Below are positions 26,230 through 64,000 of a DNA stretch of 64,000 nucleotides, piece after piece (within the stretch, counting starts at the first letter, position 1; every line of letters begins with the position of its first letter). This DNA is from Candidatus Yanofskybacteria bacterium (lineage in GTDB: Bacteria > Patescibacteriota > Minisyncoccia > 2-02-FULL-40-12 > IGHO2-01-FULL-4-A), in contig JACOZV010000004.1 of the NCBI GenBank assembly GCA_016181175.1, positions 7,718 to 71,717 of the forward strand, read 5' to 3'. Under the pieces are notes generated by a model. That model searched no databases. It saw nothing but the letters and a program-made list of their open reading frames with translations, and was not told the origin of the DNA. The translations under genes were made by a program, and so were the position numbers.

Positions 26230-26742
26230 CTAGCCCCAGCGAACGGCGGCGGATATAATAAATCCCATCGCGCCGATGGCTAATCCCAGAAAAGCAATAA
26301 ATCCGGCTAATAACATAGCCGTTTTGCGTAGCTTGAATTTTTCAAATTCTTCTTTATCTACAAACGCCAAAATCATTGCCGTTATTGCTAGTGGCAAAAT
26401 AAACAAAAAAATATGCTCTTTGGCTTCCATCGCGATAGCATGTGCCCAAGGCGCCGTTCCCTTTAGAATTACCGGCTTCACCATCTTGCCGTAATTAACA
26501 ACATAGTAATAACCGCCGAGTAGCCAGGTTAAAGCAAAACCGATTACGCCGATTATGGAAGCCCATTTAATTCTGGCATGATTTTGCGACTTGCCGGCTT
26601 GTCCAGCTCCAGTTTGGGACTGTCCAAACTGGAGCTGGACCAACTCCCCTAAGTACCACAAAAAAGCGTCTATGCCGGCAATTGCAAAAGCAAGGTGTAA
26701 TCCCACCAATACAGGTTTATATGTTAAAAATGAAAGTATCAT
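26230..26742 (-). CDS. hypothetical polytopic membrane protein
   Basis: Five TM helices. It contains a 40-nt perfect hairpin repeat at 26601..26640 encoding LVQLQFGQSQTGAGQAG. Confidence 0.5.
   Translation of the reverse strand: MILSFLTYKPVLVGLHLAFAIAGIDAFLWYLGELVQLQFGQSQTGAGQAGKSQNHARIKWASIIGVIGFALTWLLGGYYYVVNYGKMVKPVILKGTAPWAHAIAMEAKEHIFLFILPLAITAMILAFVDKEEFEKFKLRKTAMLLAGFIAFLGLAIGAMGFIISAAVRWG
26601..26640. repeat. perfect 17-bp inverted repeat with 6-nt spacer inside a CDS
   Basis: gtccagctccagtttgg-gactgt-ccaaactggagctggac. Confidence 0.9.
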
Positions 26743-49080: not shown

Positions 49081-50559
49081 TTACATTACCAACTTCCTAT
49101 ATGCCCCATCTAAAAAAGTGTCTATTGCTCTGATCTGATTATCTCTCCTTAAATCGAGGAGTGTTTTTATATCATCGTCGTCAAGCGCGATGATAAAACC
49201 TCGATCGTCGGACGCTGTATCTTTGCATCGTTGAATGAAGCGCGTCTTGTTGGTAAAACTCCTGCATATTAACAATCCGAATCTGCCACGATTAGTAGAA
49301 AACCTACCGGACAACTGGTCGAGTTCGGGGTTAGCCGGATCAGATGAGTAATTCTTACACTCAACAAAAATATAGCTTGATGGTACTCGCTTGTTCTGCG
49401 GTAATTCCCAAAAGAACCCTTTTTTTGCAGCGTTTTCGAAAACGATATCAACTTTCTTTCTCCTTTCATGTAGCGGCTGCTCCTTTTTCGGATTTATAAG
49501 AAACGGATAAAAAATGGCAGTGAGCGCCCCTTGAATATGGTTATGGAAATTGTCTGCGTCAGCATCACCAGTATCTATACGATCCAGTTCTGCTTTTAGA
49601 GCATCGAAGTCAAAAGCTGGGCGTGCACCTATAGCATCAATGTCTTCGTTACTAATTTCTTCGAGATTGTACTGTTTACTGTCGCGATATCGTCGCAAAA
49701 CTTCCGGATGATCTTTCGAAAAAGTGTAAAGAAATTGCTTCGAATGAGGGTGAAGTTCTTTGAGTGCCTTTTTTGTAGGCGGTCTACGCGTTCCATCTTT
49801 AAGCACCCTCACAAGGGCAGAGTTCGCGCTTAAATGCTCTTCCTGTAAAAAGTTTAGTACGAAATGCTGATAGTATTCCTGATGGCTAAACTCCAAACTA
49901 AAACGCGCAACTGCTTTAGGGACAAGTAAAACATTTCTATCATTACACACCGGAAGATTAACATACTCATTAGTCCATTCATTACGAACCGTATTCCAAA
50001 CAGTGCCGCTTGGTACGTTGTGCATTGTAATACCCCAAAATATACATTCGTTTTGGGTGTACTCGATTAACTTTCCGCGAATAATGTTAGTGGTCATGTC
50101 AGATATCTTGTCATGGCTGATGCCTTCGATAAGAAGTTCGCACTCTTCAAGATCTTTAAGAAACCCAGTTCTTACAGCCGAGCTTTCAGCCAACGCATCA
50201 TATAAATCGTTCGCCTGATCTCCTCCTACACCCCTACCTCTCGGGGATCCTCCAACAGACAAACCAAAACGAGTTTGATTCGGCTCTCGCAATCCTGAAA
50301 GCATGTATTTTGCGTCATCCTTTCTATCGGCTCTGATCAAGTCGATAACTCTTTGAAAAAAATTAACGATCTGATTGTGGCAATCGATTGACCACCTATC
50401 ATTCCGCTTTGAAAGAGCATAAGGATCAATAAACAAAGGAATATCCCCATTATTTATGGGAACATCGACAAAATCGAGTTCGTACTGGCTTTTACCAAGT
50501 CGGAAGTTCTCCGAAAAGGTTTCGTATCTTCTTGGTTGTTGTGTTCTTTGTCTTGGCAT
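49081..50559 (-). CDS. large hypothetical protein with a C-terminal PD-(D/E)xK-type nuclease motif
   Basis: ...KKVDIVFENAAKKGFFWELPQNKRVPSSYIFVECKNYS...GRFGLLICRSF fits D-x(n)-E-x-K with a downstream Q/R. No other recognisable domain. It is the last large gene of the type I R-M operon. Confidence 0.5.
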   Translation of the reverse strand: MPRQRTQQPRRYETFSENFRLGKSQYELDFVDVPINNGDIPLFIDPYALSKRNDRWSIDCHNQIVNFFQRVIDLIRADRKDDAKYMLSGLREPNQTRFGLSVGGSPRGRGVGGDQANDLYDALAESSAVRTGFLKDLEECELLIEGISHDKISDMTTNIIRGKLIEYTQNECIFWGITMHNVPSGTVWNTVRNEWTNEYVNLPVCNDRNVLLVPKAVARFSLEFSHQEYYQHFVLNFLQEEHLSANSALVRVLKDGTRRPPTKKALKELHPHSKQFLYTFSKDHPEVLRRYRDSKQYNLEEISNEDIDAIGARPAFDFDALKAELDRIDTGDADADNFHNHIQGALTAIFYPFLINPKKEQPLHERRKKVDIVFENAAKKGFFWELPQNKRVPSSYIFVECKNYSSDPANPELDQLSGRFSTNRGRFGLLICRSFTNKTRFIQRCKDTASDDRGFIIALDDDDIKTLLDLRRDNQIRAIDTFLDGAYRKLVM

Positions 50560-50567
50560 GGTTCATG

Positions 50568-52250
50568 CTATTTGATCAATTTCTTATTCCAGCCCTTTGA
50601 TTTGATGAACTTGAGCGTGCCTTCGATTTCGGCTTTCCTAAACTTGTTTGGTTTCCATGCTTGAATCTTGTCATTGATCGTTGTGAGATCGTCGCTTTTT
50701 GCATCCTGCACAACCTTGCAGACGGTTGCCAAGCACTCAATTTGAGCGCTGGTGGAGTTTTTAATTGCCGGCATAAGATCATTAAGGACGGACTCCATGT
50801 TGCTCAAGATTTTTGAGTTGTATTTGAAGAGTTTACCGGAGTTAGCGCCTAAACCATAGACGCCGTTTTTTTGCTGAAAGAAGCCATTGCGAGGACTTGC
50901 GCCGGCGGTGATGGCTTTCTTAATCTGTAGATCGTAGGGGCCGAAGTTCTGCGAGGTAAAGCTGAAGCCGAGCGGTACCCTGTAAACTTCCTGCGCGAGA
51001 TATAAGAGCTTCGCCACAACCATTTCACCACGTTCAAAACGTTGCAACACCGCTCCGATGGCTTGCCACACCGGAAAGACACTTGCTTTGACAGGAACAG
51101 CAGCCACGCCCTCTTTTACCAACTCACCAGCAAGCGCTTTTGACAAGGCGGAATCAAAAAGTTCCTTCAGCTTCTCTTTTTGAACGAGAAGTCCTTTTTT
51201 ATACTCTTTAATAGCACTAAACCTCTCGGCAATGGCATGCTGGTCTGTCGTTGGTGGTACCATGATTTTTATTTTTTTAAGTGCGGTAGAGTTTACTGCG
51301 GCTTGATTTACCCACGGCGTGCATAGATAACGAAATCTATCGGTTGAATATAAGTATTGAAGATATATAGAGAAGTAGCGCGGATCTAATACTTTTTCGT
51401 TTGTGCGAATCCGAGTGATGTGATTTGAAAAGACATACTTGTAATCCTTGTCTATGTAAACGCTTTTTCCAACTAAACTAATACTGTTTGTATTATTAAA
51501 TAGGACATCACCACTCTTCAGGAAATAAGTTTCCGCATGTGGGTAATCCTGTGGAATATACTTGATGCTATCAAAGTTCAAACTACCGTCATCGCCGATA
51601 TTATTAGGTCTGATTTGTCCAATACCCTTCCCAACCGGACGGAAGGCAAAACCATTCGTAACATCGACTACTAACGCACCGATCTTTTCTTCCTTCCAGC
51701 TTTTTGACGATGATCCAAAAATCTTATTCAAAAGCGACTGAAAAAGCTGATCTGTTTTTTCAATAAGCGCATCATTGAGTTTTTGGGCTTCGCGGATAGA
51801 ATCAACACGTTCTGCAATTGCTTGTTGGGTATTTAAAGACGGCATTGGTACTCGTAAATTTTCAAGGAAGGTTCTATTCAAATGTGGTACTGCCGCTCCT
51901 TGCGCTGCTGATCTAATTTTTTGCTGATTAAATTGCAAAAGGTAAGCAAGGTATCGACTTTCCAGTGTTTCGTTATGAACCACTTTAGCAATCGTGGAAC
52001 CAACAAATCCTCTTAAACCGATACCAACGGTGCCGGCATAAGCACCATCCCAAACCAATAAAACATCGTCATTGTCGCATCGAACTCCGTTATTTTCTGA
52101 AGTGTAAAGCGTATATTGACCACTTCTTAAATTTTCAATGCCAATATAAGGCAAGGTGTCCTTTGCGGCTTCTGCTGCGGAAATCATCATTTTACCTTTC
52201 GCAAAAGAAATAAGTTCGCCTAATTTTTTTGTTTGATAATTACTTTGCAT
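50568..52250 (-). CDS. hsdS: type I restriction-modification specificity subunit HsdS (two TRDs) with a 180-aa C-terminal Panacea/DUF4065-like extension
   Basis: The N-terminus and central conserved region are typical HsdS (LGELISFAKG...IGIENL...; central NTQQAIAERVDSIREAQKLNDALIEKTDQLFQSLLNKIFG; distal HAIAERFSAIKEYKKGLLVQKEKLKELFDSAL). After about aa 380 an extra domain carries KLLYLAQEVYRVPLGFSFTSQNFGPY. Confidence 0.75.
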   Translation of the reverse strand: MQSNYQTKKLGELISFAKGKMMISAAEAAKDTLPYIGIENLRSGQYTLYTSENNGVRCDNDDVLLVWDGAYAGTVGIGLRGFVGSTIAKVVHNETLESRYLAYLLQFNQQKIRSAAQGAAVPHLNRTFLENLRVPMPSLNTQQAIAERVDSIREAQKLNDALIEKTDQLFQSLLNKIFGSSSKSWKEEKIGALVVDVTNGFAFRPVGKGIGQIRPNNIGDDGSLNFDSIKYIPQDYPHAETYFLKSGDVLFNNTNSISLVGKSVYIDKDYKYVFSNHITRIRTNEKVLDPRYFSIYLQYLYSTDRFRYLCTPWVNQAAVNSTALKKIKIMVPPTTDQHAIAERFSAIKEYKKGLLVQKEKLKELFDSALSKALAGELVKEGVAAVPVKASVFPVWQAIGAVLQRFERGEMVVAKLLYLAQEVYRVPLGFSFTSQNFGPYDLQIKKAITAGASPRNGFFQQKNGVYGLGANSGKLFKYNSKILSNMESVLNDLMPAIKNSTSAQIECLATVCKVVQDAKSDDLTTINDKIQAWKPNKFRKAEIEGTLKFIKSKGWNKKLIK

Positions 52251-52869
52251 AAGAATGCGCAGAGTATTGAATTCTACCTACGCGGTTTAATAAGCGCGTA
52301 TCCCGAACTTTTAAGTTTTCACCATCTTTATCGAATGGCCTTATTTCTGCTTTCCAAATAGATCTACAAAAAACAGTGTTCTGATCATTCATATATGTAA
52401 TTTCTAAACATACTGGTATCGCAAATTCAGCCATTTCATACCATTCTCTAAAATTTTTTATGAGTTGAAGTTTGATTCTAAATGACTCATCCTCTGTGGT
52501 CTGATAGAGGGGCACCTTATGATATCTTTCTTCTGCGATGGGCATACCGGTCGCTTTGGGTTGGGAGATATTAAAAGCCGATCCGCGACCAGAATTGAAA
52601 CAGTCAAACTCTATGGAAAAAACTATTTCAAAATGATTCGCATCAGCACGGATTATGCTTCCGGCATCCATCACACCATATCCATGCTCTACTTCACTAT
52701 GTCTAACCCCAACCCATATTCTTAATGGACGCAAAATTAAGCTGGGTACTGTACTTAATGCAGAATTCCAATCTGCTTTTCTGATAGCTTTTATCGAAAT
52801 CCACAGTGAAACAACTGCGGTTATCCCGACTAAAATATCTGCCGTTTTAGAAATTATTTCAAAATTCAT
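52240..52869 (-). CDS. hypothetical protein with N-terminal TM helix, embedded between hsdM and hsdS
   Basis: MNFEIISKTADILVGITAVVSLWISIKAI... It overlaps the hsdS start by 11 nt and begins 7 nt after the hsdM stop. Confidence 0.5.
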   Translation of the reverse strand: MNFEIISKTADILVGITAVVSLWISIKAIRKADWNSALSTVPSLILRPLRIWVGVRHSEVEHGYGVMDAGSIIRADANHFEIVFSIEFDCFNSGRGSAFNISQPKATGMPIAEERYHKVPLYQTTEDESFRIKLQLIKNFREWYEMAEFAIPVCLEITYMNDQNTVFCRSIWKAEIRPFDKDGENLKVRDTRLLNRVGRIQYSAHSYAK

Positions 52870-52875
52870 AATCTT

Positions 52876-54405
52876 TTATCCCAGTTTATCTGTCATCTCT
52901 TCTTGTAATTTTGTTAGATCTTTATTGATTTTCTCAATTTCTTTCAAAATAATTTTTGGCTCGCGGTGTTTTATCTCTTCTCCGATAGCATATGGGTTAT
53001 AAGTGTTTGCAGAAAGTATGTAATCATTTTCGATGATTTCTTTAACTGGCGTAAACCATGCAAGCTGTTTTTCAACTGCGCGGTTTTTATGCCAGAGTTC
53101 CAACAGCTTCGGAATATCATTTCTATATTGGCTGCCGAATTTTTTGGATGCTGAAAGCGATGAACCATCACCTTGCATATCAAAGAACCATACCTTTGCA
53201 GATTCATCGAGTTTCGGCACCGCCTTTTTTTTGAACACCAAGAAGGACGTTTTTACGCCGGCATACGGCTGAAACACGCCTGCCGGCATGGAAACAACCG
53301 CCTGTAAGTCCGTATTTTCAAGTAGAAAACGGCGGATCTCTTTATCATCGCGGTTGGTACCAAAAAATGAACCTTCGGGAAGGATTATGCCGGCTCTGCC
53401 ATTGGGCTTGAGCGAGTTTATAACATGACCCAAAAATAGAACCTGTGTTTTGGTTGATTTGACCGGCAAGGTTGGTTTTATACGTTCCCGATCAACCTTT
53501 CCAGAGAATGGTGGATTTGTAAGGACAATATCGAATGTGCGCAGATCATCCTCATCTTCAGATCCAGCAACCGTGTCTTTGCGCTTAATGTTCGCACTCT
53601 CTATGCCATGTAATATCAAATTCATAAGTGCTAACCGCACCATCTCCGGATCAACATCAGAACCCAAAAAGGTTTTTTTGGTTAGAAATTCCCACTGTTT
53701 TTTATCGAGCTTATCTCCAAACCCCCTCTTGTGTCCATTTTCCTCTTCAATGCTTTTGGGATCGCTATTTCTTAATCGGATCCAATCATAGCCGGAGATG
53801 AGGAAGCCACCAGAACCACACGCAGGATCATAAACAGTTTCGCCAATTTTTGGATTCACCATTTCAACTATGACGCGAACGATATGACGCGGAGTGAGAA
53901 ATTGTCCAAGTTCGCCGGCTGATTCAATACTTGCAAGCAGCTCTTCATAAAGATCGCCCTTAACATCTGTGTCTAATCCTGTTAAATTGATCGTGTCAAT
54001 AATTTCAATCGTGTTTTTTAATGTAACAGAATGGGGAATTTCGAGCTTCGCATCATAAAAAATTTGCCGTATGTTAGAGTGTCCATTTTGCAATCGCTCC
54101 ACAAAGGGAAATACCTCATCACGAACAATTTTATACAATTCATCGCCAGCTTTTTCTTTCCAGCGCGACCATCGGAATTTTTCGTTTTTGCCCTCGAAAA
54201 TTGATTTATGTTTACGCCCAGTAAGTTCTTCGCCTCTCTCCATAGAAATATCCTGTTCCTCAAGCATTTTCAAAAAAAACAAAAAGCTAATCTGCTGGAT
54301 CCTTCTCACAGGGTCTCGTAAACCTGCACCCCAAAGATAATCGTTCAGGCGATCTAATTTTTGGCGAAACTCTATTCTTAATTGTTGTATTTTTTGTTCG
54401 GGCAT
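52876..54405 (-). CDS. hsdM: type I restriction-modification N6-adenine DNA methyltransferase subunit
   Basis: NPPFSGKV catalytic motif, AdoMet site DPACGSGGFL, HsdM N-terminal domain. Confidence 0.85.
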   Translation of the reverse strand: MPEQKIQQLRIEFRQKLDRLNDYLWGAGLRDPVRRIQQISFLFFLKMLEEQDISMERGEELTGRKHKSIFEGKNEKFRWSRWKEKAGDELYKIVRDEVFPFVERLQNGHSNIRQIFYDAKLEIPHSVTLKNTIEIIDTINLTGLDTDVKGDLYEELLASIESAGELGQFLTPRHIVRVIVEMVNPKIGETVYDPACGSGGFLISGYDWIRLRNSDPKSIEEENGHKRGFGDKLDKKQWEFLTKKTFLGSDVDPEMVRLALMNLILHGIESANIKRKDTVAGSEDEDDLRTFDIVLTNPPFSGKVDRERIKPTLPVKSTKTQVLFLGHVINSLKPNGRAGIILPEGSFFGTNRDDKEIRRFLLENTDLQAVVSMPAGVFQPYAGVKTSFLVFKKKAVPKLDESAKVWFFDMQGDGSSLSASKKFGSQYRNDIPKLLELWHKNRAVEKQLAWFTPVKEIIENDYILSANTYNPYAIGEEIKHREPKIILKEIEKINKDLTKLQEEMTDKLG

Positions 54406-54407
54406 AG

Positions 54408-56663
54408 TTATCGTGTACAGATCCTTTGGTTAAGCTCCGAGAGAGCGGATTGTAAAACACCTTCCTCAAACACTCGCAACGCATAATTAAGACCACCGAT
54501 TTGCCGGAAGATCGGCTCGTTGAATATGGAAATATCAACCGGCTCTTTGCGAACGATACATTGCGACTTTACCAAACGCAGGATTTTTATTTGATCGGAT
54601 GCAAAGTTTTTCTCGATTAGCCATGATTCAAAAAGCTGATTTACACGCTGCTCATGTAGTTGCTCTTCTGTAGGGAACTCCTTTGTTTTGAGTGCTGCTT
54701 GTATGAAGTCATTGAGCGTGCCTACCGGATAGCGATATGCTTCTCGCAAGTTTGCTTCGTTAAAATAGAACTCCGGAGAATTAAGTTTTTCGGAAAGGAA
54801 GGCGGTTTCGTCATTTGAAAGATCTTCGCCTTGTTTAACTTTTGAAATAAGCGGCTCGGTTTTAGCCATCTCTTGAACTTGCTGCTCCCATGCCACCTGA
54901 TAATCATCGGCATCAATTCTTTCGCCTTCTGCTCCAACTTCGATATGCGCACGCTGCATAACCACGTCCATGTTTTCGGGTGCTGTTTCCGGCACTTGAA
55001 CAAAAAGTCGCTTCACCACTTCTTCCTCTTCCTGCGTTAAATCTTCAGCTTCGGTTCCCCACGGAATACCAGCTTTAATTTTTGCATAGGCAGAATACGG
55101 ATCAAATCCTTCGTCATTGAAGTAACGAGTAACGCCAGCAAAGTCATAAATACGAAAAGATGTTTTGCTGATTTTTTGATATAATCGGCTGCCACGTCCT
55201 CGCATCTGTTGGTAAAGGATCGGGGAACGTGTAGGACGCGCCATGATCAAGTTTTCTACCATTGGGACATCGATGCCGGTATCCATCATACCCACCGAAA
55301 CCGCTACCATCGGCATTTCTTGGTGCTTAAAACGTCTTATGGCTCCACGAGGATCTTCGGTATCGGAAGTAATAACTTCAGCGTATCTTCCCTTATATTC
55401 CGGATATGTCTGATTGAGATAATACGCCAATTGCGCAGCGTGTTTTTTCGTAACAGCATAAAGAATGGTTTTGCGATGGTGTTTTGGTTCATGCTTTTCT
55501 TCTTCCTCTCTGAATGTTTTTGCCAATTGCTCGTTTCTTGCCGGCACATTGATTTTTCTCTCCAAATCTTCGGCGTTGTAATCTTCACCCTCAAATTGCA
55601 CACCTTCTAAAGACACTTTGGTGTCGATCTGTAAGATCTCATAACCAGCAAGAAATCCCTCTTTGATGCCTCGTCGAATACTGTATAGAAATGTCGGTTT
55701 ACCCTTTTTTTCACGCTCATCCCAACAACCAAAGAGCTTATAGGTGTTACGATCAATAAACACACTCGGCGTTGCTGTAAGACCTATCCGGATTGCGTCA
55801 AAATGCGATAGGACAGCGTTGTAGATGCCGAAGATGGATCTATGTGCTTCGTCCGAGATAACCACATCAAAATAACCACTTGTAAAATTCGATAGTTGCG
55901 AATAAAGAGTGGGAAGTGTCGAGATGATTATTGAGGATTCGTCTTTTTGCTTGCCTCCGTAAAGAAGCTTTGTAGGATAATCTTTCAAAATTTCATCAAA
56001 AACTTCCTTTGTTTGTATGCCTAAATCAATGCGATCAACAAGAAATAAAACACGCCGGATGAGATTCGCTTCAAACAGCCGTTTGAGATAAAGAGCTATG
56101 GTATCTGTCTTGCCAGTGCCGGTTGCCATAGCGATGAGCATTTTGCGCAAACCGCCCTCAATGGTTTTGTCCATGATCTGCATGGCCTCCTTTTGATATG
56201 GGCGTGGTGTGCGTAATTCGCCACCTTTAAAATAATTGTCGGGTACAGGAATGGCGGTTATCGGCTTTTGATCTATTCGTAGGGTTTGGATTTTTTCTAA
56301 ATCGCGTTGAGAAAAGAAGGTAATTACCTTTTGCTCTGGACGATATTTGTAATCCCAAAAATAAATATCCTCTCCATTGGAAAGGAAAATGAAATCGATA
56401 CCCAGCTCTTCTGCGTAGGTCAATGCCTGCTGTTTTGCCAATACTGGTTCAGTTGAAAACCGCTTTGCTTCGATAAGCCCGATGGCTCTGCCGCGTCTAT
56501 CCCTCAAGAAATAATCGGCACGTCCATCCTTCACCGGATCTTCGGTTGAAACTTGATTTTTATCCTCAATATCCCAGCCAGCTTCGCGGAGTTTGCGATC
56601 GATGACAATGCGAGCGTCCGTTTCTCTTGAGTTGTTATTGTTATTTGTCATATTCATTTTCAT
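54408..56663 (-). CDS. hsdR: type I restriction enzyme R subunit (short form: N-terminal PD-(D/E)xK nuclease + SF2 helicase)
   Basis: DYFL...IGLIEAKR nuclease core; MATGTGKT Walker A; DEAH box (VVISDEAH). Its stop overlaps the hsdM start (ATGA). Confidence 0.8.
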   Translation of the reverse strand: MKMNMTNNNNNSRETDARIVIDRKLREAGWDIEDKNQVSTEDPVKDGRADYFLRDRRGRAIGLIEAKRFSTEPVLAKQQALTYAEELGIDFIFLSNGEDIYFWDYKYRPEQKVITFFSQRDLEKIQTLRIDQKPITAIPVPDNYFKGGELRTPRPYQKEAMQIMDKTIEGGLRKMLIAMATGTGKTDTIALYLKRLFEANLIRRVLFLVDRIDLGIQTKEVFDEILKDYPTKLLYGGKQKDESSIIISTLPTLYSQLSNFTSGYFDVVISDEAHRSIFGIYNAVLSHFDAIRIGLTATPSVFIDRNTYKLFGCWDEREKKGKPTFLYSIRRGIKEGFLAGYEILQIDTKVSLEGVQFEGEDYNAEDLERKINVPARNEQLAKTFREEEEKHEPKHHRKTILYAVTKKHAAQLAYYLNQTYPEYKGRYAEVITSDTEDPRGAIRRFKHQEMPMVAVSVGMMDTGIDVPMVENLIMARPTRSPILYQQMRGRGSRLYQKISKTSFRIYDFAGVTRYFNDEGFDPYSAYAKIKAGIPWGTEAEDLTQEEEEVVKRLFVQVPETAPENMDVVMQRAHIEVGAEGERIDADDYQVAWEQQVQEMAKTEPLISKVKQGEDLSNDETAFLSEKLNSPEFYFNEANLREAYRYPVGTLNDFIQAALKTKEFPTEEQLHEQRVNQLFESWLIEKNFASDQIKILRLVKSQCIVRKEPVDISIFNEPIFRQIGGLNYALRVFEEGVLQSALSELNQRICTR

Positions 56664-56676
56664 TCTTGAGCTTGAT

Positions 56677-58476
56677 CTATAAATTCTCGTAATACCCCCT
56701 GATCTTTTTCGCCATGAGTTTGCGGCGTTCCTTCAAAAACCTTTCGTAATCCCCAAGCTCCATATTCTGAAAGCCATCCGGTATGCAATTCTGTTTTAGG
56801 TTCTCGGCGAGATCTTTTTTATCGGTTATGCCGCCATACTTGAGCTTGCCTCCTTCGGTTTGTTTCATTACTTCAGCCATGTACTCTTTGGGAGATTTTT
56901 TGCCGACTTTGATATTTATTTCAGATTGAGCATAAGTAAAGTTGCCAATCTGGTTGTAATCGCCCCTACTTAAGCCGCCTGCTTTCTTCAGGTATTCCTT
57001 TGGAAAGAGATGATGGATGTCGCCGCGATGACTGATCATATTACCAACGGTAATGTCGGTTGAAAGAAAGCCCCTGTCGTTATTTTTAACCTGTGCCGCA
57101 AAAAAAAGATTGAGAAATGGATTGCTGATGCTCGCCTTATCGAGTTCCTGAATAAGCTGCGCGTTCCAAAAAGCATCGGAGAGTTGCGCTTCTTCGATTG
57201 ATTTCAAAATCTCGCCAGCATCGCCATTGGAAATCTGCTTAATATCCGAATCAAATTGGCTTTCCGGTGATCCGGAATAACGTCCGGTGAGGATAGACAT
57301 CACAAACCAGCGTTGGACATACTTTTCGATCAAGCTTGGATCGACACTCTTATCGCGCAGCTTGAGATATAAAATATAGGCAAAGTTAAGAGCGTTTTGC
57401 GAATTGATAAGGTCGTTGCTTATAAAGCCGCAGGATTTGATGATCATTACAAACCGCTTGAAGTTTGTTTCATTTACAAAATCCAGTACCGCATCACGGA
57501 GTTTTTGGAAAGACGCATCCATTATGTCTTGCTCAAAACTGCGTGTTTCAAAGTTACGCCCCGAAAGCAGTCCGACAAGATCCGCCATCTTGCCTCGTTC
57601 AAATTGTTTGGTGAAACTCACACGCAACACATCGGAATAATCCGGATCGTAGAGGTCGTCATTTTCATCTTTAAGCCATGCAAGTTTTGAAAGGTAAACA
57701 GTTTTGTTAAACTCTGCATCATTTTCAGTTATGTGTTTGTAAAACTGCGGCTCGCGCGCAAGATGGCAAAAATAGTCGACACACTTTCTTAAATTAACGC
57801 CGAAATTATCCTCCTTGTCATAAGAAGCTATCTTCGACATGGCAAAGTCAGCTTGGCTTAATACAACACCTTTGGAATTGATACGGATAAAAATCTCGGT
57901 AACCGTTTCAATATCTAAACCGGCATCAAGTTCAATAAAACCAACCTGCTTGCTTTTGATCTGTAATAACTTCTCAATGTTCTTTTCAATGAGTTCACGA
58001 TTTACGTCAAGATTTTTGTCGCAATAGTCAGTTACATCTTTGAATAAGCCGCCGTCCTTACTCATAAGTTTTGAGATGTCAGCTATCCACGCCTTGTCCT
58101 TTTTTATTGCCGGTGTGAGTGTGGCAAATTCTTCTATGATGGGGTGAAATGCAATATAGATCCGTTCCTCCTTATAATCTTTATTGATAATGTTTTGACC
58201 GAGAATTGCCGCACGGAGAGCGGTAATGCGTTGCTGTCCGTCAATCAAGACCTTTTTGCCGTTGGAAATGGAGCCATCTTTAAGACGAACATCGGGGTTT
58301 TTCCATGCAATGATATAGCCGATCGGATAGCCACGATAAAGCGAATCCATCAGATCGCGCACCTTTGTCGAATCCCAAACAAACGGACGCTGGATTTCCG
58401 GTATAGCGATTTCCTTTTCCTGAACCCAATTCAGGATATTGCTCACAAAGTATTGATTGACTGTGTATTTTTGCAT
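56677..58476 (-). CDS. GmrSD-family type IV restriction enzyme (DUF262 ParB-like N domain + DUF1524 HNH-like C domain)
   Basis: IPEIQRPFVWDSTKVRDLMDSLYRGYPIGYII...LIDGQQRITAL is DUF262. The C-terminus GDIHHLFPKEYL is DUF1524. I take the start at MQKYTV (58476). The ORF call to 58638 reads through an HTH gene in another frame. Confidence 0.75.
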   Translation of the reverse strand: MQKYTVNQYFVSNILNWVQEKEIAIPEIQRPFVWDSTKVRDLMDSLYRGYPIGYIIAWKNPDVRLKDGSISNGKKVLIDGQQRITALRAAILGQNIINKDYKEERIYIAFHPIIEEFATLTPAIKKDKAWIADISKLMSKDGGLFKDVTDYCDKNLDVNRELIEKNIEKLLQIKSKQVGFIELDAGLDIETVTEIFIRINSKGVVLSQADFAMSKIASYDKEDNFGVNLRKCVDYFCHLAREPQFYKHITENDAEFNKTVYLSKLAWLKDENDDLYDPDYSDVLRVSFTKQFERGKMADLVGLLSGRNFETRSFEQDIMDASFQKLRDAVLDFVNETNFKRFVMIIKSCGFISNDLINSQNALNFAYILYLKLRDKSVDPSLIEKYVQRWFVMSILTGRYSGSPESQFDSDIKQISNGDAGEILKSIEEAQLSDAFWNAQLIQELDKASISNPFLNLFFAAQVKNNDRGFLSTDITVGNMISHRGDIHHLFPKEYLKKAGGLSRGDYNQIGNFTYAQSEINIKVGKKSPKEYMAEVMKQTEGGKLKYGGITDKKDLAENLKQNCIPDGFQNMELGDYERFLKERRKLMAKKIRGYYENL

Positions 58477-58477
58477 A

Positions 58478-58666
58478 TTACTTTTTTGGTTTCTTGATAT
58501 TCGATCGAGAACGAATAAACGCCTCGAGATCGCTCTCGCTGATCCGCCAATAGCCGACTTTGGTCGCCTTGAGCCGCCCACTCGAAATATAGCGATACAA
58601 GGATCGCTCGCTAACTCGCAAATACTTTGCCGCTTCACGTAATGTAAGAAATTTCTTTTTGGTCAT
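58478..58666 (-). CDS. excisionase/AlpA-family helix-turn-helix DNA-binding protein
   Basis: LTLREAAKYLRVSERSLYRYISSGRLKATKVGYWRISESDLEAF. It is the first gene of the defence operon. Confidence 0.65.
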   Translation of the reverse strand: MTKKKFLTLREAAKYLRVSERSLYRYISSGRLKATKVGYWRISESDLEAFIRSRSNIKKPKK

Positions 58667-58747: not shown

Positions 58748-59188
58748 TTAGCAGGGGTAACCATTTGGACAAATATCTTCCTGTCGTTCGGTCGTCGGAT
58801 CAATAGGGGTGTTTAAGTCCGGCACGGTATGGTTGCGTGCCATCAACCACCAAACGAGAAGTATCCAAAATCCCCAAAATAAAACTACTGGAACAACTTT
58901 TGAGATGTTTTTCTTTACTCTGATTTTCAACGGAGGGTGAAGTACATGTTTAAGCTCATGGCTTGCTAAATCGCCGTACTCGATTTTCTCCACACACTTT
59001 GGACACGCAACAAATTCTTTCTGCTGCTCGGAAAAGCGCTTGTTTACTCTTGCCCAGAACCCCTCGTCAATAAATGGATTTCTATTTTTTCCGCTCATAG
59101 TTTTGTGAGCGGCGAGTTTTGAAACACAAAACCCACCACTGGGAGGGCTTGCGCCCCTATGGAAGTTTCCCTCCATAACGTTAGGCAC
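58748..59188 (-). CDS. hypothetical protein with CxxC motif and C-terminal TM helix
   Basis: ACPKCVEKIEYGD...; C-terminal VVPVVLFWGFWILLVWWLMA. Start uncertain. Confidence 0.4.
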   Translation of the reverse strand: MPNVMEGNFHRGASPPSGGFCVSKLAAHKTMSGKNRNPFIDEGFWARVNKRFSEQQKEFVACPKCVEKIEYGDLASHELKHVLHPPLKIRVKKNISKVVPVVLFWGFWILLVWWLMARNHTVPDLNTPIDPTTERQEDICPNGYPC

Positions 59189-59332
59189 GCCCCAAATGAT
59201 GGGTTTTCTATGCCTAACGATTTGCGACCATGCCGCCAGCCGAAGCCGATGGTTTAGATCATTTGATATCCAATTGTGTTTTTAAGTATATCAGAAAAAC
59301 ATGAGATCCTGCAACGGATGAAAAATACTGCT

Positions 59333-59371: not shown

Positions 59372-59869
59372 ATGACGATGAATATGAAAATGAATAGTAA
59401 AAAAACCGAACCATTTCGCGTTGTTATAAATACAAGTACCGACCCCAATGTGCCATTGATTGAGCTTGTACGTGGTAACCGGAAAGCCAAACTTCCACCT
59501 ATTGCGATCAAAAACGTACGTCTTGATACCGATCGCTATTTGCTTGTCGTAAATGACGGCGAGCGCGTTGTTGCCTTTAAGTCAAAAAGGCACAAGAAGG
59601 GACTGGATAAAGAAACGAAGCTATTTAAAGTGCTGGTATTGCTTTTTGATTTTCGCCTCGAAAAAAAGGGTGAAAAAATACTCCACAGCAAAAACCTTAA
59701 CCCCGACTACACTTCTCTAAAAAATATCGCCGGAAATAGCGGAAGCCCAACACAAGAAGCAGCATATAGAAACATAAAGCGGTTAAATGGCTACTTTGAG
59801 GAAAATGGCTTGTCTATATGGATTGAAAAACACGGCAATGATTGCCGCCTCGTAGTTAAGAAGAGTTAA
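59372..59869 (+). CDS. hypothetical protein
   Basis: ORF only; no motif recognised. Confidence 0.4.
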   Translation: MTMNMKMNSKKTEPFRVVINTSTDPNVPLIELVRGNRKAKLPPIAIKNVRLDTDRYLLVVNDGERVVAFKSKRHKKGLDKETKLFKVLVLLFDFRLEKKGEKILHSKNLNPDYTSLKNIAGNSGSPTQEAAYRNIKRLNGYFEENGLSIWIEKHGNDCRLVVKKS

Positions 59870-59986
59870 TACGCGGACATTATTTTTACAGAAGCGCTCG
59901 ATACTTTAAGGATAAAAGCGCTCAAAAAGTAGAAAAAATCCCTCAAGGGACATTTTGAAAATGTCCCCGATTTTTCTCAATAGTGA

Positions 59987-60298
59987 ATGATATGGTCAAA
60001 GCAAGATACGCTTTGGCTTTTTTGTTTTCCCAAGCCAGCGCGGTCGGATGATATGAAGATACTAAATGAAAAAAACTTTTATCAAACTTCTGACTTTTGC
60101 CTCGCAACGGTTATTTCACTTTCTTTTCCGATAGAAGCAGTAGATCGGCAGAACACGCGAAAAGTTCAATTTATATTTCGTCGCAATAACGTCCTCGATA
60201 AGCTGATCGAGGATTTTTGGCGTGGTGAGATCCGAATTGATCCACAGCTTTTCTATAACCAATTACGAGTGATGAAAGCTCGGATTTACAACGACTAA
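59987..60298 (+). CDS. hypothetical protein
   Basis: ORF only. Confidence 0.35.
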   Translation: MIWSKQDTLWLFCFPKPARSDDMKILNEKNFYQTSDFCLATVISLSFPIEAVDRQNTRKVQFIFRRNNVLDKLIEDFWRGEIRIDPQLFYNQLRVMKARIYND

Positions 60299-60299
60299 C

Positions 60300-60554
60300 A
60301 TGCTTAAACCATCGGCAATTGAAGAATTAAGGTCGATATTGCTCGAAGAGTTTGGGCGTGATGTTGATATTAAAACAGCCAGAACGATCGGCGAGGATTT
60401 AGTCGGCTTCTACGACACTCTCGCAAAGATCGCGCATAAGGATAAAACGATAAGCAAAAATCTTTCCCCTTGCTCGGGTTCCATAGTGGACTATCCACTT
60501 GCAATGAGTAGTTCATTGAAAAAGAGGGTGGAACCCGAACAAAGAGAAAGATAA
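60300..60554 (+). CDS. hypothetical protein
   Basis: ORF only; tightly packed with its neighbours. Confidence 0.35.
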   Translation: MLKPSAIEELRSILLEEFGRDVDIKTARTIGEDLVGFYDTLAKIAHKDKTISKNLSPCSGSIVDYPLAMSSSLKKRVEPEQRER

Positions 60555-60565
60555 AAAAAGAAATT

Positions 60566-62125
60566 ATGAAAAACATTTTTAGTGGTAACCACAAAAAAGG
60601 AAAGGTGTCCGACAAACTGAAGGGCGCGGAATTGGTTTTAGATGTGATCGAAAAAAGCGACTTATGGCTCTTTCACGATCAATTAAACGAGGCATACGCC
60701 GTTATAGCTGGTGATGGAGCATCAATAATGAAAATCGACTCGCAAAAGTTCCACAACTGGCTTTTTAATCATATCTATGACGAAACCGGAAAGATCAGCA
60801 ACACAGCCGCGTGCGAGGCAGCCATAAAGGTTCTGAAACATCAAGCAGAAACTGGGAATCTATTTGAGCTTGGAGTTAGGGTAAAACTGCGTGAGGGCGG
60901 TATTTGGTACGATCTCGGCGGTCAAAACTTTGTGAGTATCGCAGAAGATGGATGGTTGGTAACTGATCCTCCGCAACCAATCCTCTTTAAGAGGTTCGGG
61001 CATCAAAAAGAGCAGGTGCGACCGGAACGCGAGGGTAGCATGAATGAGTTTATGGAGCTTATTAACCTACAAGACAAAAAAGAATCTTTGCTCCTCATGG
61101 TTTACTTGGTTGCATCGTTTATTCCTAACTTTCCTCATCCTGTATTGATTGTGCATGGTTCGCAGGGGGCTGCTAAAAGTACCGCATGTAAATTGATTAA
61201 AGAATTAGTGGATCCATCTGCATTAGAAACTTCGACTATAAACGACGATAAAGACATAAAAGAATTGGTACAAGCCGCATCGCATCATTGGCTGTTAGTT
61301 CTCGATAATATCTCCTATATCTCCGAGAAAATCTCGGACACGATCTCACGAATATGTACCGGAGGCGGATTATCTAAAAGAATACATTATAGCAATGACG
61401 ACGACTTCATTTACAACTTTATGCACATAGTCGCCATTAACGGAATCCATCAGATCGTAAGCAAGCCCGATCTCCTCGATCGATCAATCTTGTTGGCGCT
61501 TGAACGCATCCCTGAAGATAAAAGGATAACGGAGGAGCAACTTTGGGGTCGTTTCAATGCAATGAAAGGAAGAGTTCTCGGCGCGGTTTTCGATGCCGTA
61601 TCCGGAGCATTGCGTGAATATCCGAATGTGCAGTTAGCAACATTGCCACGAATGGCGGACTTTGCACGCTGGGGATGCGCTATTGCGAGGACGCTCGGCT
61701 ACACCGACGAGGACTTTATGAATGTATACAAAACGAATATCGGAAGGCAGAACCAAGAGGCGCTTTCAGCAAGCGCCACAGCAGCAGTCATCATCAAGCT
61801 CATGGAAGATAATGATGTTTTCGAAGATACACCATCTGCTCTTTTGCGACTAATGGATCCGATAGCCGACGATCTCAAGGTAAAAGAAGCGAAGGATTAT
61901 CCACGACAGGCAAACTGGCTTTGGAGGCGCATTGAAGCGGTTATACCGAACCTTGCTGACGCCGGCATAAAGGTCGAGCAAACGAAAGATACTGAACGGA
62001 AGATAAAAATATCAAAGATATTGCGCGGTGATGACAGCACTGAAATTATGCCGTCTTCCGAAAAACCAGCAGAAGAACCTGCAAAAGACAGCATCGACAG
62101 CATAGACGGCACTTTCCCCCTGTAG
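60566..62125 (+). CDS. plasmid/phage replication-associated P-loop NTPase (primase-helicase C-terminal / D5-VirE-like)
   Basis: Walker A VLIVHGSQGAAKSTACKLI; Walker B WLLVLDNIS. The size and context are typical of replication proteins on integrative elements. Confidence 0.5.
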   Translation: MKNIFSGNHKKGKVSDKLKGAELVLDVIEKSDLWLFHDQLNEAYAVIAGDGASIMKIDSQKFHNWLFNHIYDETGKISNTAACEAAIKVLKHQAETGNLFELGVRVKLREGGIWYDLGGQNFVSIAEDGWLVTDPPQPILFKRFGHQKEQVRPEREGSMNEFMELINLQDKKESLLLMVYLVASFIPNFPHPVLIVHGSQGAAKSTACKLIKELVDPSALETSTINDDKDIKELVQAASHHWLLVLDNISYISEKISDTISRICTGGGLSKRIHYSNDDDFIYNFMHIVAINGIHQIVSKPDLLDRSILLALERIPEDKRITEEQLWGRFNAMKGRVLGAVFDAVSGALREYPNVQLATLPRMADFARWGCAIARTLGYTDEDFMNVYKTNIGRQNQEALSASATAAVIIKLMEDNDVFEDTPSALLRLMDPIADDLKVKEAKDYPRQANWLWRRIEAVIPNLADAGIKVEQTKDTERKIKISKILRGDDSTEIMPSSEKPAEEPAKDSIDSIDGTFPL

Positions 62126-62190: not shown

Positions 62191-62418
62191 ATGAAGAATC
62201 GAACCGAACAATTTAGAGCATGGCGAAGGCGCAATCCGGCGGCATGGAACGCTATTGTAAAGCGCTGCAAGCGCAAGGGGCGCGCGCTCAAGCTACAGTG
62301 GGTTATAAACGAGTATTCGCGCTGGCAGAAGTGGTGTGCAGCGCATCCAGCACAACACCGTAAAATAGCACGCGATTCTTACCACAGAAGAAAAACAAAT
62401 AAGATCAGGGATGCTTGA
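62191..62418 (+). CDS. small basic hypothetical protein
   Basis: Arg/Lys/Trp-rich, 75 aa. Confidence 0.35.
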   Translation: MKNRTEQFRAWRRRNPAAWNAIVKRCKRKGRALKLQWVINEYSRWQKWCAAHPAQHRKIARDSYHRRKTNKIRDA

Positions 62419-62419
62419 G

Positions 62420-62622
62420 TTGTATTCATTGTCAGATTTTTATCTGGCAGCAAGCTGGGTTGTATTCGTTGTCAAAGTGTACATGGATATAACTACAGTA
62501 GTAATGTGCGCATAAAAGATGGGGTTGAACAGGAGTGCGTGTCGTATTGTCAAGCTTCGAAGCAAGTATTGCACGCAAAGAAAAGATGGCTTGATTGAAA
62601 ACGTGTATTTGTTTGTCAAGCC
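62420..62622 (+). repeat. four direct iteron-like repeats GTTGTATTCRTTGTCAAG, at 62420-62435, 62460-62477, 62539-62555 and 62603-62622
   Basis: The repeat consensus was read directly. It lies upstream of the recombinase promoter. Confidence 0.7.
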
Positions 62623-62653
62623 CCGAAGAGAAAAACAAGGAAAAAAGTAAACA

Positions 62654-62682
62654 TTGTATCGACAATGTATTGATAGTATAAT
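62654..62682 (+). promoter_or_regulatory. sigma70-like promoter: TTGTAT - 17 nt - TATAAT
   Basis: Optimal 17-nt spacing with a perfect -10 box. It is overlapped by the small palindrome cattg-tatcga-caatg. Confidence 0.5.
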
Positions 62683-62710
62683 GGCAATGTACCCCCAGTT
62701 GCACTACAAT

Positions 62711-62770
62711 CCGTGATTTTTTATTGGCTTCTGCCCTTAAGGGGGGCGGTGCCGGAAGCCAATCCTCACG
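62711..62770 (+). other. structured 5' leader of the recombinase gene
   Basis: ccgtga...tcacgg encloses ttggcttc...gaagccaa, two nested perfect stems. Confidence 0.35.
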
Positions 62771-62808
62771 GAAAAAGCGACTGGGGTACCACCGCTCCCT
62801 TTAAGTTT

Positions 62809-64000
62809 ATGAAAAACGAACAAAATACAACTAAAAATAAGGCGATTTCCTTTTGCCGCGTAAGCTCGAAGGAGCAAGCCGATGAGGGTTATTCGCTTGA
62901 ATCGCAGGAAAAGCTACTTGAGGCATACGCTACAGACGATAAACGAGATTTTAAGATCATCAAGATCTATAAGATCACGGAATCAGCGAGCGGAAAGCAG
63001 GTACGAAAGACATTTCAGGAAGCACTGAAATACGCCACTGATCAAAAAATAAAGATCATTCTGTGTGAAAAGATTGATCGATTAACACGCAACCTTAAAG
63101 ACGCCAGCACAATTGACGATTGGGTAAAGGATAAAGACACTACCGGTCGGCAGGTTCACTTTGTAAAGGAAAACTTTATTCTTAACGCTGATACAAAGGC
63201 ACACGATAACCTTGTGTGGGATATGAAGGTGGCTATTGCGCGTTTCTATTCAAACAATCTATCCGAAGAAGTGAAGAAGGGGCAAAAGGAAAAGATCGCG
63301 CAAGGATGGCTTCCTACGAAGCCGCCGCTTGGGTATCGCACGATCGGCGACAAAGGGCATAAAACGCACGAAATTGACGAGAAGATCGCCCCATATATCC
63401 GTAAGATGTTTGAGCTTTACGCTACCGGTAATTACTCAACGCTTTCTTTGGTAAGGGTTATGTACAAGGAAGGTTTGCGCAACCGCGAGGGTAAAAGGGT
63501 TGGAAAGAGTAGATTGCATCAATTGCTTTCGGATCCATTTTATTACGGCAAGATGCGATGGAAAGGCGAGGTTGTTAAAGCAGAACACGAACCCCTTATT
63601 CCGAAAGAATTGTTTGACGACGTTCAAAAAATACTTGTCCGGAAGATCAAATATCCCATGTATAGGAAACACCTCCCTATATTTAAGGCGATGCTGCGCT
63701 GCGGAGAGTGCAAAGGCACTGTTACGTGGGAAATACAAAAAAATCATTGGTACGCTCACTGTAGCCATTACCGAAACTGCAAGCAAAAAAAGTATGTCCG
63801 GCAGGAAGCTGTCGAAGAACAGCTTTTCCCATACTTTGATCGAGTTGCCCCGATAAACACGCGCTTGCTGCAGTGGCTTGAGAAGCAGCTTAAAGAAAGC
63901 CACACCGAAGAGATCAAATACAACACCTCAAAGCGAGAGGAGTTAAACCGGATCATCGCAACCGCCGATAGACGGATCGAGGCGGCGTATAAAGAGAAGC
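62809..64000 (+). CDS. large serine recombinase (resolvase catalytic domain + recombinase domain + zinc ribbon), 3'-truncated by the window end
   Basis: My own translation gives MKNEQNTTKNKAISFCRVSSKEQADEGYSLESQ... (catalytic Ser), then DPFYYGKMRWKGE and CGECKG...C. It is not in the ORF table because it has no stop within the window. Confidence 0.85.
   Translation, partial: MKNEQNTTKNKAISFCRVSSKEQADEGYSLESQEKLLEAYATDDKRDFKIIKIYKITESASGKQVRKTFQEALKYATDQKIKIILCEKIDRLTRNLKDASTIDDWVKDKDTTGRQVHFVKENFILNADTKAHDNLVWDMKVAIARFYSNNLSEEVKKGQKEKIAQGWLPTKPPLGYRTIGDKGHKTHEIDEKIAPYIRKMFELYATGNYSTLSLVRVMYKEGLRNREGKRVGKSRLHQLLSDPFYYGKMRWKGEVVKAEHEPLIPKELFDDVQKILVRKIKYPMYRKHLPIFKAMLRCGECKGTVTWEIQKNHWYAHCSHYRNCKQKKYVRQEAVEEQLFPYFDRVAPINTRLLQWLEKQLKESHTEEIKYNTSKREELNRIIATADRRIEAAYKEK

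Follow-up and report, generated by a model that had tools for sequence, protein, structure and literature searches.

In the repZ/repA leaders of IncI-alpha and IncB plasmids, the loop of stem-loop I forms a long-range pseudoknot with sequence next to the ribosome binding site. This contact comprises 4-8 bp and activates translation, under the control of an antisense RNA and a leader peptide. The fold-back of the hok mRNA (tac/fbi) and the transposase leaders of IS10 and IS200 are metastable or fold-back structures that occlude translation initiation of mobile-element genes, while preQ1-II, SAM-II and similar pseudoknot riboswitches sequester the ribosome binding site. Here we describe a leader RNA that precedes a large serine recombinase gene in a 64-kb stretch of DNA from a Candidatus Yanofskybacteria bacterium (contig JACOZV010000004.1, positions 7,718 to 71,717; hereafter, the window). 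At its right end, the window covers a mobile element from a genome of the Patescibacteria or candidate phyla radiation (CPR) type. On comparison of its sequence with those of related loci, we regard this leader as an instance of a new, previously uncatalogued and widespread RNA motif on the large serine recombinase genes of CPR mobile elements.

The leader resembles that of the IncI-alpha/IncB plasmids in that a G-rich hairpin loop (of GGCG type in the plasmids) pairs just before the start codon of a mobile-element gene, a long-range RNA-RNA contact that would set translation. It differs in the length of the leader helix (15-19 bp), in the gene, which encodes a recombinase, and in the likely effect, which is repression; neither an antisense promoter nor a leader peptide was found with it. 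With hok and the IS10/IS200 leaders it would share the use of alternative mRNA folds, ordered during transcription, to hold the expression of a potentially harmful element gene low. However, it has no sequence or structural homology to them and no Rfam match, being a three-stem hairpin whose loop pairs with its tail, on the large serine recombinases of CPR bacteria. With preQ1-II and SAM-II it shares the pairing of a loop with a 3′ tail next to the start codon, as well as a U-rich strand that could form triples. Unlike these riboswitches, the leader does not match their Rfam models, has far fewer conserved unpaired nucleotides and a much longer helix, and occurs in a non-metabolic context.

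The leader RNA and its relatives

The promoter, the leader and the recombinase gene follow one another at the end of the window:

62654..62682, forward strand: recombinase promoter, with the -35 element TTGTAT (62654-59), a 17-nt spacer and the -10 element TATAAT (62677-82)
62688..62806, forward strand: leader RNA motif, whole element, about 120 nt (covariance-model match of 120 bits, E 1e-22, the sole match in the window)
62689..62702, forward strand: 5′ strand of stem P1, pairs with 62777-62789
62710..62716, forward strand: 5′ strand of stem P2, TCCGTGA, pairs with 62766-62772 (TCACGGA)
62717-62722, forward strand: conserved U-run after the 5′ strand of P2
62723..62732, forward strand: 5′ strand of stem P3, ATTGGCTTCT, pairs with 62754-62763 (GGAAGCCAAT)
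62736..62751, forward strand: X, CUUAAGGGGGGCGGUG, in the apical loop; pairs locally (CCCUU/AAGGG mini-stem) or with X′
62790..62805, forward strand: X′, CACCGCUCCCUUUAAG, directly 3′ of P1, ends 3 nt before the ATG
62809..64000, forward strand: large serine recombinase gene, identified from its Pfam domains; first 397 codons, extends past the end of the window

The leader consists of three nested stems, P1 of 13 bp, P2 of 7 bp and P3 of 10 bp, and has a folding energy of -48.8 kcal/mol (z = -3.9). Its apical loop and its tail can form a further helix, X:X′, which in the window has 16 bp including three G.U pairs. The initial annotation, made from the sequence alone, had described a leader of 60 nt with two stems. 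Both of these (P2 and P3) are real, whereas P1 and X:X′ had been missed and the element is about twice as long as described. The leader is thus more interesting than it first seemed and for a different reason, since it is a new RNA motif with very strong covariation support. A tRNA or tmRNA remnant was ruled out, as ARAGORN gave no match at the region. A second, degenerate copy of the leader in the intergenic region was likewise dismissed, the covariance model having no further match in the window.

The promoter had also been recognized correctly. Its -10 hexamer is perfect, while its -35 hexamer is weak and fits TTGACA at three of six positions, giving 9/12 in total for a promoter of the sigma-70 type. 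A generic promoter scan missed it because of this poor -35 match. Its position is conserved: in 28 of 37 instances among relatives, exactly 5 nt separate the end of a -10 hexamer from the first position of the model, and most of them have a TTGnnn -35 at 16-18 nt. This fixed distance suggests that the transcript starts at the foot of P1, with a predicted start at about 62688-62689. Promoter and structured leader together are a genuine regulatory unit of the recombinase, as had been proposed, and this unit is conserved in dozens of related elements. No Shine-Dalgarno (SD) sequence is visible before the recombinase, yet this is typical of the window, in which an SD-like motif precedes only 9 of the 43 long open reading frames (ORFs). 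Several genes of the window, for example the ORFs starting at 26742 and 40398 (both on the reverse strand), have a TATAAT-like box 6-10 nt before the ATG, which suggests leaderless mRNAs.

We compared the window with related recombinase loci or elements, which are given L numbers. By eye, the sequences upstream of the recombinases of L002-L005 could be seen to have the same layout, namely a long hairpin behind a -10 box, with complementarity between its loop and the tail. A covariance model built from the window sequence alone (R1) gave 24 plausible matches upstream of related recombinases, all on the gene strand. A second model (R2), built from 22 R1 matches, gave 38 matches at E<0.007 among 89 recombinase loci, and exactly one in the window. 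Five more instances were found by a DNA pattern scan of IMG/VR contigs and one more in L100; a protein scan of IMG/VR with a single recombinase sequence returned nothing. Two of the IMG/VR contigs with a leader encode recombinases only about 26% identical to that of the window. Altogether, the search that began with the window sequence recovers this architecture at about 40 of 95 related large serine recombinase loci. Wherever the downstream sequence was checked, the leader is followed by a recombinase gene or by a small ORF and then a recombinase gene, save for L094, where the contig ends. The first ATG of the operon follows 1-30 nt after the end of X′ and is that of the recombinase or, at some loci, that of the preceding small ORF.

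No known RNA family accounts for the leader. Rfam 15 yielded no match overlapping 62688-62806 at E<=10 or at the gathering threshold, and in six related loci none overlapped the leader at E<=1. Nor did a family for it emerge when the region, the whole window and 13 related loci were scanned. Literature searches on this topic turned up no account of such a leader. Meanwhile, some leaderless loci (L013, L015/L016, L018, L031 and L036) carry another conserved, G+C-rich sequence (...GGGGTAGGGGGA(T/A)C(T/C)GT(C/T)AC...) about 100-220 nt before the recombinase ATG. This sequence, which has no Rfam match at the gathering threshold, may be a different structured element.

Hairpin and loop-tail helix as a candidate switch

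The P1-P3 hairpin and X:X′ were evaluated in separate alignments. In the hairpin, 96.1% of the cells are paired, 29 of 30 pairs display double-sided changes and slid controls reach 36-44%. The covariation score is 0.871 versus 0.225 for shuffles, in an alignment that was fitted to the model and leans towards structure. The alignment of X:X′ was instead anchored by sequence alone, on the first GGG after A or T and the last C before UUU, and is gapless with 50 columns. Columns 6-15 are paired in 27-28 of its 28 sequences, and columns 2-5 and 16 in 23-27. Double-sided changes occur in 13 pairs, slid controls give 40-65%, and the covariation score of 0.529 (0.167 for shuffles) was matched by 0 of 500 shuffles. 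A set of 34 sequences displays 15 gapless base pairs, with each position paired in at least 30 of them. The variation within the helix is illustrated by position 4, which is CG in 15 sequences, GC in 13, UG in two, UA in two, GU in one and AU in one. The mean energy of the duplex between loop and tail is -29.6 kcal/mol for cognate combinations and -21.3 for non-cognate ones. Conserved unpaired positions are confined to the A-rich junction J1/2, the U-run of J2/3 and a CC, and the gene context is that of recombinases only.

Two observations bear on whether the conserved unit is RNA or DNA. A G.U pair is conserved at k=3 in 24 of the 34 sequences and a U.G pair at k=8 in 20, a pattern that we take to be meaningful only for a plus-strand RNA. 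In addition, leaders score 71-120 bits on the plus strand versus at most 27 bits on the minus strand. Both argue against a feature that acts as DNA, with the inverted repeats serving as a recombinase binding or attachment site, as a cruciform or as a single-strand origin, and the upstream repeats serving as origin iterons. Such a feature would be in keeping with a densely palindromic region that adjoins a recombinase gene and a helicase-type replication gene, and with direct repeats that are statistically real. However, the loops are asymmetric and non-concentric, the promoter lies at a fixed distance, and the leader is intact in integrated copies. Moreover, related recombinase genes end in tRNA genes (see below), and the attachment site is therefore placed at the 3′ end of the gene, outside the leader. 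We consider a DNA-level function very unlikely.

The geometry of the loop suggests that the two pairings compete. The apical loop has a median length of 23 nt, of which 17 contiguous nucleotides pair with X′, with linkers of 3 and 4 nt. Judged by A-form geometry, about 1.5 turns of X:X′ should not be able to form in a closed loop, and therefore the full X:X′ and the hairpin (at least P3) would be mutually exclusive. Their energies are close: the mean is -46.0 kcal/mol for the hairpin alone and -43.1 kcal/mol with X:X′ enforced (difference range -15.5 to +6.6), and the fold with X:X′ is the minimum free energy structure in 8 of 33 sequences. Part of X also has local partners, which differ by subgroup (CCCCU/AGGGG, GCUG/CAGC or GGUAG/CUACU). 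Though predicted to be mutually exclusive, the full X:X′ and the hairpin are, from these alignments, both under selection. The short loop, the nearly isoenergetic folds and the local partners for X thus favour a bistable leader.

Alternatively, the leader might be a static structure and no switch. In that case it would be a compact 5′-terminal fold, in which the hairpin is joined by a partial pseudoknot of loop and tail and, possibly, by U.A-U triples that involve the U-run. It would stabilise the mRNA against 5′-end-dependent nucleases, or be a constitutive damper or enhancer of translation. In keeping with this, the predicted 5′ end takes part in the base pairs at the foot of P1, P1 and X′ are separated by a median of 1 nt, which permits coaxial stacking, and both helices are retained in every member. 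The conserved U-rich J2/3 and A-run in X also fit, as does the fact that no trigger was found. Nevertheless, 17 contiguous base pairs in a closed loop of 23 nt seem sterically and topologically implausible, the covariation spans the whole 15-bp helix, beyond a kissing core of about 7 bp, and the two nested folds are near isoenergetic across divergent sequences. We regard a static role as unlikely, yet as a serious rival of the switch.

Based on these findings, we postulate a two-part explanation, to which we give an even chance of being right, in which the leader is a bistable switch in cis and the repeat boxes upstream of it belong to a separate replication module. From the conserved structure of the leader we infer its function as a switch. 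The sigma-70-type promoter would start the transcript at the foot of the leader, which would then control the recombinase mRNA in cis. In fold A, the long P1-P2-P3 hairpin with its mini-stem cap would form first during transcription, leaving X′ and the ATG free, so that translation would be possible. In fold B, the X:X′ helix of 15-19 bp would bury the landing site of the ribosome and leave the 5′ half unpaired, so that translation would be off and the mRNA probably open to decay. Recombinase would consequently be made from a strong promoter at a low level, in bursts or subject to conditional gating, within a short time window or under particular conditions. Candidate triggers are time, ribosome occupancy, a nuclease or a protein.

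Several points weigh against the switch. It relies on predictions for the start site, for both folds and for the direction (on or off) of the regulation, and the nearest-neighbour energies ignore pseudoknots; a partial pseudoknot of up to 10 bp may exist alongside P1-P3. Many members have an A/U-rich spacer of 10-30 nt between X′ and the ATG, and in these X:X′ may impede initiation only weakly. About half of the closely related recombinase genes lack the leader, which is therefore dispensable. Finally, no trigger was identified in these analyses, and few unpaired nucleotides are conserved.

The scarcity of conserved unpaired nucleotides also leaves little for a binding pocket, and hence counts against an element that responds to a protein or a ligand, as riboswitches and the T4 gene 32 leader do, and in which a binder of one fold would autoregulate translation. 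The recombinase itself, the small conserved helical ORF described below, the basic ORF or a host factor would be candidate binders. Sequence conservation within the helix (AAAGGGG/UCCCUUU and a G.U pair) hints at recognition. Such a role would also suit the small conserved ORF that is syntenic with leader and recombinase, before the promoter or between the two, and the A/U-rich unstructured spacer that follows the structure in many members. Yet the leader occurs with recombinases of about 26% identity and is absent from many close relatives, which argues against a tightly co-evolved protein partner. We consider this responsive element quite unlikely, though it too is a serious rival.

Control by an antisense RNA, as in the rep genes of IncI-alpha/IncB, would require a counter-transcript that binds loop X and blocks an activating pseudoknot with X′. 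The geometry is alike, with a hairpin loop complementary to the sequence just before the start codon. However, there is no conserved antisense promoter (weak sites, at scattered positions, in only 6 of 37 loci), and no leader peptide was noticed, a point for which there was no systematic test. By eye only, X was also considered as the SD sequence of a leader peptide, and no conserved start codon was seen after it. The LOOT RNA of the element was tried as a trans partner of the leader and rejected, as its duplex energy is no better than that of shuffles, a weak test. We therefore hold antisense control to be extremely unlikely.

Other candidates were rejected as well. An intrinsic terminator or attenuator is at odds with the U-run of X′, which pairs with the A-run of X, with a conserved C-G as the closing pair, and terminator-like matches are weak. 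A leader RNA acting as a cofactor or guide of the recombinase was disfavoured by tests: X′ of L087 resembles the anticodon arm of the target tRNA-Asn, as a guide or mimic of the attachment site might, but nothing comparable was found in L010, L011, L023 and L009, and we treat the resemblance as chance.

The switch that we favour has a bolder form, in which the leader would be a true bistable device that tells the recombinase the state of the element or of the cell and gates integration and excision at the level of translation. We consider this form improbable. Its input could come from ribosome traffic or a nuclease, or from the element itself by way of a protein or an RNA, for instance the small helical ORF or the co-resident LOOT RNA. 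If true, no such layer of control by an RNA switch would have been described before for large serine recombinases. These enzymes drive the integration of many phages and integrative elements and are prime tools of genome engineering, and little is known about how their synthesis is restrained. The leader provides a directly testable point of post-transcriptional control in CPR/Patescibacteria, which are hard to culture. Its compact design, in which the loop of a three-stem hairpin captures the region of translation start, could also serve as a synthetic expression gate.

Repeat boxes upstream of the promoter

The initial annotation had also pointed to an array of direct repeats, which lies between the replication genes and the recombinase promoter. 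The features of this region are the following:

62191..62418, forward strand: small basic ORF of 75 aa, rich in arginine; may bind the TTGTCAA boxes
62419-62808: intergenic region of 390 bp, with boxes, promoter and leader
62416..62434, forward strand: box copy 1, TGAGTTGTATTCATTGTCA (core of the 16-mer at 62419-62434)
62456..62474, forward strand: box copy 2, TGGGTTGTATTCGTTGTCA, 17/19 identical to copy 1 and 40 bp away
62539..62562, forward strand: box copy 3, partial, GTGTCGTATTGTCAAGCTTCGAAG
62603..62628, forward strand: box copy 4, partial, GTGTATTTGTTTGTCAAGCCCCGAAG
62652..62667, no strand: palindrome CATTGTATCGACAATG over the -35, an inverted repeat with an ATTGTC core, possible operator

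Four direct copies had been counted, with coordinates 1 nt off. Two of them hold the full 16-mer GTTGTATTCRTTGTCA (62419-62434 and 62459-62474), whereas the third and fourth have only its 3′ half. The latter make a pair of their own (TTGTCAAGCTTCGAAG at 62547 and TTGTCAAGCCCCGAAG at 62613) and are the sole two occurrences of TTGTCAAG in 64 kb. With up to three mismatches, the 16-mer has six matches in the window versus 1.16 expected, which is above chance, but only those at 62419 and 62459 are exact. The palindrome overlapping the promoter is where it had been reported, and a fifth, inverted ATTGTC core (62661-62666, minus strand) lies inside it. The five TTGTC cores of the intergenic region are the highest number in any 282-bp stretch of the window. 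By eye, no -10 element lies at 16-18 nt from the TTGTCA boxes, and they were rejected as -35 elements.

Several short boxes between replication and serine recombinase genes, with one over the recombinase promoter, bring to mind both the iterons of replication origins and the res-tnpR regions of Tn3/gamma-delta. Iterons, however, are at least three near-identical direct repeats of 17-22 bp in regular helical phase, while the window has two full and two partial copies at irregular spacings of 40, 78 and 66 bp. No DnaA boxes and no marked AT-rich unwinding stretch were found in the box region, which lies 3′ of the helicase-type rep gene and has a GC content of 0.38 versus 0.42 for the window. The iteron reading, one of those put forward by the initial annotation, is therefore weak. 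The likeness to res-tnpR, where a small resolvase binds three dyad-symmetric subsites upstream of its gene, fails in that the boxes repeat directly and lack dyad symmetry, the gene encodes a large serine recombinase rather than a resolvase, and the box co-occurs with a small basic ORF and not with the recombinase. An array bound by a recombination directionality factor had also been suggested. This is unlikely on general knowledge, as the directionality factors of large serine recombinases bind the integrase protein and not DNA arrays.

As a four-copy array, the repeats do not recur in related elements. L087, the recombinase of which is 93% identical to that of the window, has one box, and L002-L004 have none; in these three, an ORF abuts the recombinase promoter. 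Relatives carry only unrelated two-copy repeats. This lack of conservation also speaks against the iterons.

The distribution of single boxes points to another owner. In L087, L097 and L098, the homologue of the 75-aa basic ORF is followed by a TGT..ATTGTCAA(A)G box. In all four elements (these three and the window), the distance from the stop codon of this ORF to a TTGTCAA(A)G box is 12-20 bp. That box is the sole TTGTCAA within 10-12 kb in L087 and L097, and L098 has four in 5.6 kb, one of them there. The 75-aa ORF is 40% identical to a 107-aa ORF of L097 (E 6e-17) and matches the L087 ORF less strongly. CxxC...CxxC motifs are present in the homologues of L087, L097 and L098. L097 and L098 have the box and no leader, and the box is absent in L099 and L100, both of which have a different small ORF. 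The box therefore travels with the small basic ORF, even in leaderless elements, and belongs to the upstream helicase/small-ORF replication module rather than to the recombinase.

As the second part of our explanation, the boxes (four direct and one inverted over the -35) would be binding sites of a DNA-binding protein of the replication module, most likely the product of the small basic ORF. They are amplified in this element and extend into the recombinase promoter, and may also modulate recombinase transcription. Against this stands that the case for the small basic ORF as the binder is one of guilt by association from four elements only, and that the partial copies may not be equivalent, as sites, to the two full 16-mers.

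Between its helicase gene and its small basic ORF, L087 has an inverted repeat with arms of 20 nt (L087:9321-9366) that contains GTTGTATC (CACGTTGTATCTC...GAGATACAACGTG). It has a GTTGTAT half in common with the 16-mer of the window.

The element, its recombinase and neighbouring genes

The replication genes upstream of the boxes and the tRNA genes at the recombinase gene ends of relatives are located as follows:

59372-62125: several small ORFs, then the 519-aa P-loop protein
60566..62125, forward strand: 519-aa P-loop protein, helicase part of the primase-helicase type replication protein of the element, assigned from homologue fusions
L087:11731-11803, L010:5554-5626, L023:4103-4175, L009:5633-5705, L011:5542-5613: tRNA at the end of the recombinase gene

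Read from the ATG at 62809, the recombinase matches Resolvase (PF00239, 5e-24), Recombinase (PF07508, 5e-17) and Zn_ribbon_recom (PF13408, 7e-5) in Pfam. It thus has the layout of a large serine recombinase, with an N-terminal resolvase catalytic domain, a recombinase domain and a zinc ribbon; R17, V18 and S19 are invariant in the recombinase alignment. There are 2149 homologues at E<=1e-40. Most of them have no source name, and those that do are proteins of CPR metagenome-assembled genomes, save for one Elusimicrobia entry. Among the named CPR groups are the Parcubacteria group, Moranbacteria, Pacebacteria, Ryanbacteria and Wildermuthbacteria.

In relatives, the 3′ end of the recombinase gene lies inside a tRNA gene of the opposite strand, which is tRNA-Asn in L087, L010, L023 and L009 and tRNA-Gln in L011; further loci share this arrangement. 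In L087, the complement of the tRNA anticodon loop contains the stop codon (TAA) of the recombinase, and the element therefore supplies the 3′ half of the tRNA. The window ends before the expected tRNA-overlapping 3′ end of its own recombinase gene. Group I introns lie directly 3′ of the recombinase gene in L004 (7607-7914) and L007 (2251-2495), both on the reverse strand, presumably inside the target tRNA or tmRNA gene.

The 519-aa protein has no match of its own in Pfam, PHROG or NCBIfam, and a PDB sequence search with it was uninformative. Many of its 1098 homologues are fused to Prim-Pol (PF09250), PriCT_1 (PF08708), Toprim_2 or RepB-primase, and these fusions to primase-type domains identify it as the helicase part of a primase-helicase replication protein.

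Among the small ORFs before it, an 84-aa ORF (60300-60554, forward strand) is homologous to a helical ORF of about 50 aa in relatives (34% identity, E 1e-7 to L003). The latter is found directly before the leader promoter or, in L093, L069 and L075, between leader and recombinase. It is a conserved partner of the recombinase module and could be a directionality factor or a regulator. A 103-aa ORF (59987-60298) matches DUF5659 (PF18903), and the other neighbouring small ORFs gave nothing in Pfam, PHROG or NCBIfam. The start of the DUF5659 ORF is overlapped by a weak match to the HTH-XRE RNA motif (RF02923; 60033-60123, forward strand; 22 bits versus a gathering threshold of 49.8, E 0.59), which is probably due to chance.

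A LOOT RNA, an orphan small RNA motif (Rfam RF03000), was detected at 59144-59260 on the reverse strand (71 bits), between the leftward cargo and helix-turn-helix genes and the rightward operon. The same motif occurs in four related recombinase elements (L087:5764-5884, L001:3462-3584, L013:2327-2444 and L015:150-272), and LOOT appears to be a component of tRNA-integrating CPR elements. The leader marks a large family of such elements and thereby provides a genomic context for LOOT.

The leftward genes (49081-58638, reverse strand) adjoin the core of the element. They include a GmrSD-type restriction protein (56677-58638, PF03235) and four large ORFs (49081-56663), and an HTH_17 excisionase-like ORF lies at 58478-58666. 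At the matching position, L087 carries methyltransferase, helicase and AAA cargo.

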